A stretch of 64,000 nt of DNA from Octopus vulgaris (taxonomy: Eukaryota). Below the pieces are notes generated by a model that worked only from the letters and a program-made list of their open reading frames with translations, searched no databases and was not told where the DNA came from. Position numbers and translations under genes: made by a program. Positions 7,999-16,061 of the stretch are shown here, in pieces. Each line of letters opens with the position of its first letter. Position 1 is the stretch's first letter. The stretch is from assembly GCA_951406725.2 (NCBI GenBank), contig OX597827.1, forward strand, positions 57,350,001-57,414,000, given 5' to 3'.

Positions 7999-8118
7999 AT
8001 AACCTTGTTTTGACAAACGGATATGTAACTGATTCGGACCATTTATCGCCCAACGCAGCGCTGTTGGCAAAGGCACTGTGCACCAAAGATGGAGAAATTG
8101 ATGTCAAATGTTACAGAG
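7999..8118 (+). CDS. Coding exon A (120 nt, phase 1-1) of unidentified gene; paralogous to exon B
   Basis: tttgttttctcAG|...AGAG|gtaaaa. Reads (D)NLVLTNGYVTDSDHLSPNAALLAKALCTKDGEIDVKCYR; 29 of 39 aligned residues identical to exon B, with many synonymous differences. Confidence 0.85.
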
Positions 8119-9581
8119 GTAAAACGTTTTGATCTTATTTTCATTTATTTCTAATTTAATACTCGTATTATTCCATTGTTTGGCAGAATCGTTTGGGCAT
8201 CGTTCAAAATGTCTTGCTTTATTTTTTTTTCCGCTTCTTGGTTTTTTAAAAAATTCGAATCCCGCTAAGGTAAATTTTGCCTGTCGTCTTTCTGAGTTCG
8301 ATAAAATAAAGGTCCCGCAGGTAACGATTTAATCATCTATACCCTTTCAAATTTCCAGCCTTATAGAAACATTCTATGATAGAAACATTCTATTATCCTT
8401 CCCTCACATTTTTGTAGTGATTAATTAAAGTCTCCAAACTATGCAGTCAAATAGAAATTCCAATTTGATGTCTAAGCAACATCAGGTATACATTTTCCCT
8501 TGGACTTGTGTTTAAATACCTGACTGGATTCGAACAAGGAACTTTTGTATTTCTGTACAAAGGATAATAATGTCCTAATGCGCTTTGTACAAGAGTCACA
8601 GACTTAATTATGACTCTTTGTTTGGAAATGAATGTTTCTAGTTCTCATTCATTCTGGTATTCTATAATAACCAAGAATAAATCATCTGTTGGTGATCGAA
8701 GACCAAAGTGATTGAAAAATAATATAACTCATGATTATTGGGAATGGAAGATGAAGCAACCTGACATTTCGACACTAACACTTCGTCTGAGAGAGAAATG
8801 AAAACTTTTCAGCAGTTGGAAAGCTCAGTCTTGGAACATTAGGTTCCATTCACCCATAGCACACTGATTTATTCAAACCCGTGAACATCATTAGTTAATT
8901 TTCGCCAACACAAACTGGCACCAGTTTTCCTAGGCTTAAGTGAAAAGTATTGTAGATCTGTGAAGGCGCGCGGCTAGTGGTCATTAGTCAGTAGGTTCGA
9001 TTAGTGCACTTCACGTCACGTTGCTCCGATACATTCAGCTAAGGATGACAAACAGTGACTCCAGGGATTATCCTTGTGACGGACAGGCTTTCCGTTCAGC
9101 GGGTGGAAGTCTTCTACTCTTGACTTAAACACCATGAAAATCCAATTAAGTTCCGATCTCATAAGACTGTAGGTCCGACAGGAATAAAAAGGAGAAAAGA
9201 GGGTATACGTATAGATATTTTAAAGCTTCTAAAATTTAAAAGATGAGGTTAATAATCCAATAAATTATAACTTCATGGCTTTGCAAGAATCGTTAGAGTA
9301 TCGGACCAAATACTTTGCGATATTTACATAGGGCCTTTCTCATTTTGAGTTCAAATTACACCGAATTCAGCATTTCAACATTGTCTTTCCTTCTTCCGAG
9401 GTAGATTAAATAAAGTATAACGGAGATACTGTTGTTGATTTAATCGACTAACCAATTCCTACCAAAATTTTGTGACTCTGTATAAAGTTAAGAAATTATT
9501 AAATTCAACTCATCTCAGGCATTTAGACATTTCATTTAGAGGATTCCTTATATATATAATGTCTATATAGGTCACAAAATT

Positions 9582-9866
9582 GTTTGTTCCTTCTCGAGCC
9601 ATGCCTGGCTCATAGGGTCGGTTTCCCGGTGTCCTTGGCGTATAGGTTCCCCACCTGGACGGGACGCCGGTCCGTCGCAGGTGAGCTGCAGGAGGAAAGA
9701 GTGAGAGAAAGTTGTGGCGAAAGAGTCAGCAGAAGTTCGCCATTACCTTCTACCGGAGCTCAGGTGTTTCGCTCATAAACACACACATCGCCCAGTCTGA
9801 CATTCGAACCAGCGATCCCTCGACCACAAGGTCCGCTGTTCTAACCACGAAGCTATGTACCTCCAC
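9582..9866 (-). mobile_element. SINE family D variant with TSD gtcacaaaatt
   Basis: Reverse-complement homolog of 62044-62335; tRNA-like head at the right end; gtcacaaaatt on both sides. Confidence 0.75.
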
Positions 9867-11684
9867 GTCACAAAATTACGGTACAAATAATTTGAATCTA
9901 TATTAATAATAATCAGCTAATTCTTTGCACGAGCCGCACGTTTTGATGTGAGAGTAAAATAGATTAAATCGAGCTCCTCTGCTTTATTGGGTCAAAACGC
10001 GGAAGATAAAGTCGAATAAGAGTGATGCTCTTTTACTCTCTTTTACTTCTTTCAGTCATTTGACTGTGGCCATGCTGGAGCACCACCTTTAGTCGAGCAA
10101 ATCGACCTCAGGACTTATTCTTTGCAGAATTTATTCTATCGATCTCTTTTGCCGAACCGTTAAGTTATGGGGACGTAAACACACCAGCATCGGTTGTCAG
10201 GCGATGTTGGGGGGACAAACACTGACACACAAACATACACACACACACGTATATATATATATATATATATATATATATATATATACATATATACGGGGGG
10301 CTTCTTTCAGTTTCCGTCTTCCAAATCCACTCACAAGGCTTTGATCAGCCCGAGGCTATAGTAGAAGACACTTGCCCAAGATGCCACGCAGTGGGACTGA
10401 ACCCGGAACCATGTGGTTGGTAAGCAAGCTACTTACCACACAGCCACTCCTACGCCTATAGAATAAAGAGTTAATCTGAATCTCAGCTGATTTGCACTCA
10501 AAACGTAAAGAAGGCATAATAATGCATCACAAGGCGTTTTGTAAATGCTCTATAGATTTTGTTAATCCTGCGTCCTCTTGGTTATCAACTAAAAAGGAAA
10601 TAATTTTATTCGTTAGTATGGCTTGCAGCTAAAAACATACACACGAACTCACATGCATACATGCGTGTGTGTGTACATGTGCGTAGCTTAAAGTATTTGG
10701 ACTGTATTTAAAAATTCGAAAAAGAATGTATCTTTAAAGCAAGAATCTAGTAAAGTGCTCAATAAACTACGTTCAGAGTGGTATAACTTTATAACATTAT
10801 AACATTATAAATGTAGAATAATAATGATGCAGACTAATAATGATGATGATGATGATGATGATTAATAATAATGATGATGATGATGATGATAATAATAATA
10901 ATAATCTTTTGTACGTTGGGCACAAGGCCCGAAAGTTTTGGGAGTGGGGGCCAGTCGATTAAATCGATCCCCAGTTCGCAACTGGTACTTATTTAATCGA
11001 CCCCGAAAGGATGAAAGGCAAAGTCAACCTCGGCGGAAATAATGATAATAATAATGATGATGATGATGATGATGATAATAACAATGATAATAATAATGCC
11101 ACAAGGGCAGCTTGTAGGGAGGGGATAAAGTCGATTACATCGACCCCAGTGCGTAACTGGCACTTATTCAATCGACTCCGAAAGGATGAAAGGCAAAGTC
11201 GACCTCGGCGGAATTTGGACTCAGAGCGTAGCGATGGGTGAAACACCTATTTCTTTACTATCCACAAGGGGCTAAACACAGAGGGGACAAACAAGGACAG
11301 ACAAACGGATTAAGTCGATTACATCGACCCCAGTGCGTAACTGGTACTTAATTTATCGACCCCGAAAGGATGAAAGGCAAAGTCAACCTCGGCAGAATTT
11401 GAACTCAGAACATAACGGCAGACGAAATACGGCTACGCATTTCGCCCGGCGTGCTAACATTTCTGCCAGCCTGCCGCCTTAATAATAATAATAATAATAA
11501 TAATAATAATAATAATAATAATAATATTATTATTATTATTATTATTATTATTATTATTATTATTGTTATTATTATTATTATTATTATTATTATTATTATT
11601 ATTATATATTAAATTAAATAATGAGGGTAGAAATTGATGCGGCTTTGCATATTTAAAAAATCCGAAGATTAAAAATTGTGATAC

Positions 11685-15467: not shown

Positions 15468-15822
15468 GTGGCGATGACGATGAAGGCAACTACTGTGACA
15501 ACAACGACGGTGACGACGACGACAATAATGATGACGATGATGATGATGAGGAGGAAGAGGAGGAGGAGGAGAAGGAGGAGGAGGAGGAGGAGGAGGAGGG
15601 AGTTGACGGTTGAAAAGGAGATGGAGGAAAAAAGACGTGATGGAAGATTTCGATGGCGATAATGATGATGATGACGACGATGATATCGAGTGGAAGAAAA
15701 GAAAGATTTTTATGACGACGACGATGATGATGATGATAAGGCAGAGAACAAGGAGAAGGAGAAAGCGAAGGAAGGGGAGAGTTTTAATGATGATGATAAT
15801 GATGATGAAAAGGAAAAGGAGT
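15468..15822. repeat. Compound trinucleotide low-complexity tract (GAT/GAC/GAG)
   Basis: Visible repeats; the D/E-rich reading changes frame and has stops; lies ~120 nt upstream of exon B. Confidence 0.8.
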
Positions 15823-15944
15823 CGATTTTGCTTTGTTGTTTTGTTTTGTGTTCTTTGTATTGTTTTCTTTTATATGGAAATATTAATTCTTATCAAAAAC
15901 TTGTGGTGGGTTTTCTCCCCCCATCATACCTCTTTTTCTATCAG

Positions 15945-16061
15945 ATAAACTGCTTTTGTCAAATGGATACGCAGCTGATTCAGACGATTTATCACCGAAC
16001 ACACTGCTGGCAAAGGCATTATGCACCAAAGACGGTGAAACCGATGACAAATGTTTTAGAG
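15945..16061 (+). CDS. Coding exon B (117 nt, phase 1-1); paralog of exon A
   Basis: tctttttctatcAG|...AGAG|gtaaga. Reads (D)KLLLSNGYAADSDDLSPNTLLAKALCTKDGETDDKCFR; same splice phases as exon A, one codon shorter. Confidence 0.85.

Follow-up and report, generated by a model that had tools for sequence, protein, structure and literature searches.

A tandem exon pair in Octopus vulgaris and its host gene, a candidate orphan peptide precursor

Gene structure at the locus

The stretch of Octopus vulgaris DNA analysed here (contig OX597827.1, positions 57,350,001 to 57,414,000, 64,000 nucleotides; hereafter the window) harbours two similar neighbouring exons, A and B, which an earlier note made from the sequence alone had assigned to an unrecognised protein. 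Exon A matched one protein among eight candidates, XP_029645612.1 of O. sinensis (138 aa), named 'uncharacterized protein LOC115219547', in which A and B stand in tandem. Mapping of XP_029645612.1 back onto the genome gave five coding exons, with A and B as coding exons 2 and 3, and the joined genomic frame is identical to CAI9733111.1 (P0003; Octopus vulgaris, 138 aa). The host gene is already annotated but without a described function; the protein has no named family, as the note implied, although the gene itself was on record as 'uncharacterized'. The features of the gene are as follows, with window positions unless a genomic position is given; contig cover refers to the sequencing runs described under splicing.

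G000:C14:57303412-57303463: coding exon 1 (ATG, residues 1-17), outside the window, 54.5 kb upstream of exon A
7999..8118, + strand: exon A (coding exon 2), 120 nt, phase 1-1; residues 18-57, with the predicted end of the signal peptide and the first C-x9-C module; contig cover in 8/8 runs
8119..15944, + strand: intron A-B, 7826 nt, GT..AG, with interspersed and simple repeats; exactly skipped by one contig in 7/8 runs
15945..16061, + strand: exon B (coding exon 3), 117 nt, phase 1-1; residues 58-96, with the second C-x9-C module, tandem paralog of exon A
51633..51690, + strand: exon C (coding exon 4), 58 nt, phase 1-2; residues 97-116, including the conserved K109-R110; follows B in the contigs of runs X12 and X13
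55140..55209, + strand: coding part of exon D; residues 117-138, with an amphipathic stretch, R130-S-K-R133, the C-terminal FFSDW and the stop; the 3′ untranslated region (UTR) continues beyond it

The introns measure, from 5′ to 3′, 54,535, 7,826, 35,571 and 3,449 bases, and the 138-codon frame spans 101.8 kb (G000:C14:57303412-57405209). The host gene is single-copy, with one locus in the genome searches, and no intronless copy was found in the genome search. Contigs of two runs extend 172-443 letters upstream of exon A, past the 144-nt ATG exon, so that at least one further 5′ UTR exon is likely.

The exon pair

Exons A and B are each flanked by a pyrimidine tract with a CAG acceptor and by a GTAA donor, and lie in the same open frame; the identical phase 1-1 AG/GT boundaries reported before are present at both. 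As adjacent paralogous exons of equal phase they form a tandem exon pair. Residue identity is 28/39 within the exons and 29/40 with the split Asp codon included, and the earlier figure of 29/39 was thus off by one. The codons of the two exons differ by 10 synonymous and 10 non-synonymous changes plus one indel of a single codon. This indel and the four synonymous changes given as examples (TAT/TAC, TCG/TCA, CTG/TTA, GGA/GGT) were all recovered, and the C-x9-C spacing and the pattern LLAKALCTKDGExDxKCxR hold in both copies.

The mismatches fall at codon positions 1/2/3 in the numbers 7/4/13. Purifying selection on both exons, which the note had proposed with a dN/dS comparison of the copies as a check, is supported by a non-synonymous divergence (dN) of 0.12 against a synonymous divergence (dS) of 0.93 (NG86), and by a simulation in which 24 substitutions were placed randomly: at most 10 amino-acid changes and no stop were obtained in 0.9% of 20,000 trials. 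The local alignment score of the two exons is 110 (shuffled maximum 23), and their likeness ends within ~10 bases of the splice sites. The flanks had been described as strongly diverged, which is true of the 300 nt downstream, whose score of 16 is at chance level (shuffled mean 19.9), but less so of the 300 nt upstream, where a score of 34 is slightly above chance (shuffled maximum 28).

A search of the 2.8-Gb genome returned two candidates, both scored, which correspond to exons A and B only (a lower bound), and a module profile run across 144 kb around the gene found no third copy. An origin as a transposable element or dispersed repeat, for which many copies would be expected, was rejected: the two genomic matches, again a lower bound, are both spliced as exons. 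The high-copy transposon that the note had named as a possible objection was therefore not encountered.

Splicing of exons A and B

Exons A, B and C each begin with AT after a G, which keeps all skip forms in frame; splicing therefore had to be examined directly. Exon A was present in 20 of the 24 listed sequencing runs, and eight of the 20 were examined over positions 7800-16180. The RNA type of the listed runs was guessed, none being on record as RNA, and the splice evidence consists of assembled contigs, from which rare variants are dropped. Contig depth, a poor measure of expression, differed widely between runs, from 2 to 1647.

In seven of the eight runs (X1, X5, X7, X12, X13, X15 and X19), one of them with no study named and the others drawn from five named studies, a single contig joins 8118 to 15945 across GT..AG. 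The join lies inside unbroken contigs of 580-908 nt in 5/7 of these runs, and the contigs of X12 and X13 extend upstream into coding exon 1 and downstream into exon C. Unique intron bins at 8360-9199 had zero cover in 8/8 runs. The joint inclusion of A and B is the main mRNA form, and an absence of spliced reads at these boundaries, which would have told against the exons, was not observed.

The earlier note had left two options, mutually exclusive exons or a two-copy module, to be separated by counting junctions. The A-B joints favour the two-copy module, with the disulfide loop itself predicted, and refute mutual exclusion as the main form. Among the joints listed in the eight runs there was no A-C or exon 1-B skip joint, and A-only and B-only isoforms numbered zero, in contigs that drop rare variants. 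Mutual exclusion would suit tandem paralogs of equal phase in which every skip form is in frame, and skip forms may go unlisted where contigs lose rare variants. It would also suit run X16 (depth 5-6), in which two contigs are unbridged and one of them runs only 3 letters beyond exon A, up to the point at which B and C diverge, and is compatible with either as the next exon. However, the second X16 contig starts within B and continues unbroken for 151 letters past the end of B at a depth of ~5, both modules are present in all annotated octopod proteins, and the joints in seven runs, five of them in long unbroken contigs, make it very improbable that A and B exclude each other. The A/B splicing arrangement is ordinary, as is tandem exon duplication as a mechanism.

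Relatives and origin of the duplication

Homolog searches, together with a scan over 1.84 billion representative sequences, yielded three sequence clusters. The first is Octopus, with three members, in which O. sinensis XP_029645612.1 is 99% identical to the O. vulgaris protein. The second is Argonauta hians GAB1604036.1, 57% identical and with two modules. The third is P0007, a protein of 104 aa with one C-x9-C module (E 6e-5) that ends in KRR-ENVSNFFSEW and can be aligned end to end except for the absent module. Two other matches were set aside: P0006 from Physella (E 1.5e-6) is a low-complexity repeat match and not a homolog, and a match of P0007 on C19 of the Octopus genome (E 0.48, two stops) lies on the antisense strand of a kinase-like exon (L016:1620-1770; G000:C19 near 24378800, +), which we take to encode a CDK8-like protein kinase (DMGFARLF...WYRAPELLLGA).

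The cysteines are retained in 5/5 modules compared. Octopus A and B share 29/40 residues, while Octopus and Argonauta share 21/40 between the A modules and 20/40 between the B modules. A tree of the five modules did not resolve; its Argonauta branches are long (0.91 and 1.17, against 0 and 0.14), and four alignment columns favour orthology by position and two favour pairing by species. The long Argonauta branches suffice to account for the mutual closeness of Octopus A and B, and gene conversion is not required. Judged by its sequence, P0007 would come from another cephalopod and would show the ancestral one-module state. With this one-module relative and two modules in Argonauta, the most likely history is that a symmetric phase 1-1 exon was duplicated in tandem before the Octopus-Argonauta split. 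The gene family is apparently restricted to cephalopods.

Protein features and conservation

At their start all three proteins have a basic residue and a hydrophobic run, with small residues at the -3,-1 positions of the cleavage sites, as seen by hydropathy and rule of thumb, and on these two grounds an N-terminal signal peptide with no other membrane segment is predicted. The predicted octopod signal peptide ends within exon A, and exon B retains a vestigial copy of this part. Invariant in 3/3 proteins are both cysteines, K109-R110, Q113, K115-G116, the KR before the tail (in octopus KR132-133, within R130-S-K-R133) and the terminal FFS-[DE]-W. Sequence comparison thus places conserved basic convertase sites beside short conserved peptides in all three.

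Between octopus and P0007 the identity is 10/39 in the module, 11/13 over R110-L122 and 6/7 in the last seven residues; between octopus and Argonauta it is 20/39 in module B and 7/7 in the last seven residues. The earlier attention to a conserved cysteine loop therefore missed the most conserved part, the C-terminal tail, which lies outside positions 7999..16061. Residues 112-133 have a net charge of +5, and helical hydrophobic moments over the tail are 0.2-0.7.

The AlphaFold model is mostly helical, with a predicted local distance difference test (pLDDT) of 67 and a predicted template modelling score (pTM) of 0.53 (other four models 43-55), and is most confident at residues 81-100. Foldseek returned no fold match at E<=0.001. 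A fold search against 48,161 chains gave a best Z of 4.5 (root-mean-square deviation 4.5, 82 aligned) and none with Z>=5, which is uninformative and not proof of a new fold.

No Pfam family passed for the full protein or for the tail, and the tail matched no hormone chain in the PDB at E<=10. PDB sequence matches to LapB (best E 0.012) and EDF1 (E ~1) were judged to be chance. A carboxylesterase-like reading of 'LAKAL-C...C-R' was dropped, the full protein being 138 aa without a Pfam match.

A candidate peptide precursor

We propose, with a probability of about 0.6, that the product is a neuropeptide or hormone precursor which has not been described before and is apparently restricted to cephalopods. 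The signal peptide would be removed near G25, and convertases would cut after K109-R110 and after R130-S-K-R133. Three products would result: an N-terminal piece containing two disulfide loops (C45-C55 and C84-C94), a helical peptide of ~20 residues from the centre, and FFSDW, a C-terminal pentapeptide that is not amidated. The central peptide and FFSDW may act as ligands on a receptor, a role likely for them because they are the most conserved parts, and the exon duplication would have doubled the loop of the pro-region and left the frame and the C-terminal peptides unchanged. A looser pro-region with tightly kept peptides between basic sites is the layout of prohormones. Language-model neighbours were neuropeptide precursors in 7/10 rows for P0002 and 9/10 rows for P0007, from many families, which is a lead at the level of the class only.

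Several points weigh against this proposal. The language-model scores of 0.82-0.90 are leads only, and recognition (2121) was under threshold. The amidation glycine and the repeated peptides of many neuropeptides are both missing here. Behind the last KR there are 5 residues in octopods, against 11 in P0007 (10 if counted after KRR). The conservation figures come from three sequence clusters only. A helical chain modelled with moderate confidence across the cut sites would also fit an intact small protein, and the neuropeptide or hormone role is put forward from sequence. At a little under even odds, the host gene may further be the first known member of a peptide signalling family confined to cephalopods and so far undescribed, characterised by FFS-[D/E]-W as a non-amidated peptide, a helical peptide from the centre of the precursor, an orphan receptor and an octopod-specific doubling of the disulfide-loop pro-domain.

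The same processing could serve a precursor aimed outside the animal, in the salivary gland (venom) or another exocrine tissue. A venom survey (bioRxiv 10.64898/2026.02.02.703354) describes short secreted proteins whose function is unknown, grouped in 27 superfamilies, many of which lack homologs beyond the cephalopods, and the range of contig depth among runs, poor measure as it is, would agree with such a product. Here, though, we find a single locus, a tail nearly invariant over the three clusters and near-identity of O. vulgaris and O. sinensis. Venom peptides often evolve rapidly and occur in multiple copies, and an exocrine role appears unlikely. We consider it just as unlikely that the chain stays uncut as a small, secreted, helical protein (growth-factor-, pheromone- or matrix-like) whose working parts are two disulfide-closed helix-hairpin-helix modules. 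Such a protein would explain the purifying selection on both modules, the cysteines kept in every module and the peak of model confidence at residues 81-100, but in the comparison with P0007 the mature protein is least conserved in the modules and most conserved in the tail, and a conserved terminal peptide immediately preceded by RxKR is typical of convertase processing. A host-defence (antimicrobial) role for the central peptide, which is cationic and amphipathic, is improbable: the charge and hydrophobic moments of this peptide, and the helices placed there by the AlphaFold model, would fit, but the single copy and slow evolution would not, and membrane activity leaves the invariant acidic-aromatic FFS-[DE]-W end unexplained.

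More improbable still is that the tail (residues 98-138) is a highly diverged CRH/DH44/egg-laying hormone (ELH) peptide, the remnant of a gene thought lost in cephalopods. PMC6425005 states that no ELH or DH44 was found in any cephalopod database, and, compared by eye with the molluscan DH44/ELH peptides seen there, the start of exon C shares the spacing hydrophobic-S-hydrophobic-x-x-acid-hydrophobic; the tail has a matching ~40 residues and is helical in the model. However, these molluscan peptides begin after KR and end in G-K(R), whereas octopods have a single R or K at the start, P0007 has no basic residue there, and the octopus gene and its relatives end in W-stop (3/3). With the dibasic start and the amidation glycine both missing from the tail, membership in CRH/DH44/ELH fails. 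A conserved KR also lies in the middle of the tail, and genome searches with PF00473 and PF02323 did not return the gene, although short split exons and filters limit their sensitivity. These searches gave three matches elsewhere for PF00473 (best E 4.25) and four for PF02323 (best E 0.138). Weak PF02323 matches lying at the cut-off of the family or barely above it, probably chance, were L020 at G000:C20:64267405-64267650 (E 0.14, with a stop) and L021 at C2:210701669-210701827 (E 0.77).

Previous reports and significance

Full-text search with LOC115219547 and five accessions returned no paper; the Sepia neuropeptidome, supplementary tables or sequences given only in figures may list the gene. 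Full-text search for FFSDW and FFSEW returned two papers and one paper, respectively, all unrelated. The LOC identifier is absent from the searched supplementary files of PMC9712504, and the motif is absent from one supplement of PMC9815951. Of 13 motif occurrences in the supplement of PMC8557429, the four viewed are all in receptors; in the searched supplements of PMC6425005 there is no FFSDW or FFSEW, and the four viewed of 13 other motif occurrences are unrelated.

PMC6425005 holds that the complexity of the cephalopod nervous system arose without new peptide families, and admits that homology searches miss lineage-specific ones; a conserved orphan precursor would be a direct test of the gap conceded there. 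One octopus screen, described in bioRxiv 10.1101/2023.11.27.568875, demanded four dibasic sites. The octopus precursor has three, and with no Pfam match, amidation or repeats it would escape common screens. If the proposal is true, a new signalling family would contradict the published view that no novel neuropeptide families accompanied the evolution of cephalopod brains. Synthesis of the predicted peptides, which are short, would be inexpensive, and peptidomics and single-cell data that already exist can readily be searched for them. The interest of the locus lies in the host gene as an orphan precursor, a moderate lead, and not in the splicing.

Repeats and other elements in the window

The intron between B and C carries at 31553-33571 (+) an apparently intact 672-codon frame with a reverse transcriptase (PF00078, E 2.9e-6) and a C-terminal GIY-YIG domain (PF01541, E 2.5e-5), presumably a Penelope-like retroelement. 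The frames at 6526-7059 (-) and 39089-39535 (+) we take to be mariner transposase fragments, from a helix-turn-helix and a 'VWVPHEL'-type motif. A dispersed repeat of ~240 nt, similar to a short interspersed nuclear element, occurs in at least nine copies of 61-89% identity (4552-4794, 19197, 21201, 29931, 30178, 49502, 50704, 51220 and 56879), and related repeat families account for heavy contig cover in runs over the A-B intron. At 15400-15830 a purine-rich GAT/GAG triplet repeat, which yields long spurious acidic frames, ends ~115 nt before the exon B acceptor. A tblastx self-comparison was swamped by repeats and was not used.

Comparison with known systems

The exon pair resembles the exon arrays of Dscam and of AMPA-receptor flip/flop in the tandem duplication of an internal exon, the equal phase and the selection on both copies. 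In contrast to those arrays, both copies are included together here, and neither frame nor intron length blocks their joining. The SF1 tachykinin/octotensin venom precursors described in bioRxiv 10.64898/2026.02.02.703354 are likewise short, secreted and cephalopod-restricted and have cleavage sites, whereas the octopus gene is single-copy and by eye has no tachykinin- or neurotensin-like motif. The nearest language-model clusters of the octopus precursor are precursors of the neuropeptide S, DH31, PDF and myosuppressin types, with which it shares a short secreted chain, a pro-region, conserved basic sites and a conserved C-terminal peptide. It differs from these in having no sequence or Pfam match and no amidation, and in possessing a C-x9-C loop in the pro-region, which is doubled in octopods.

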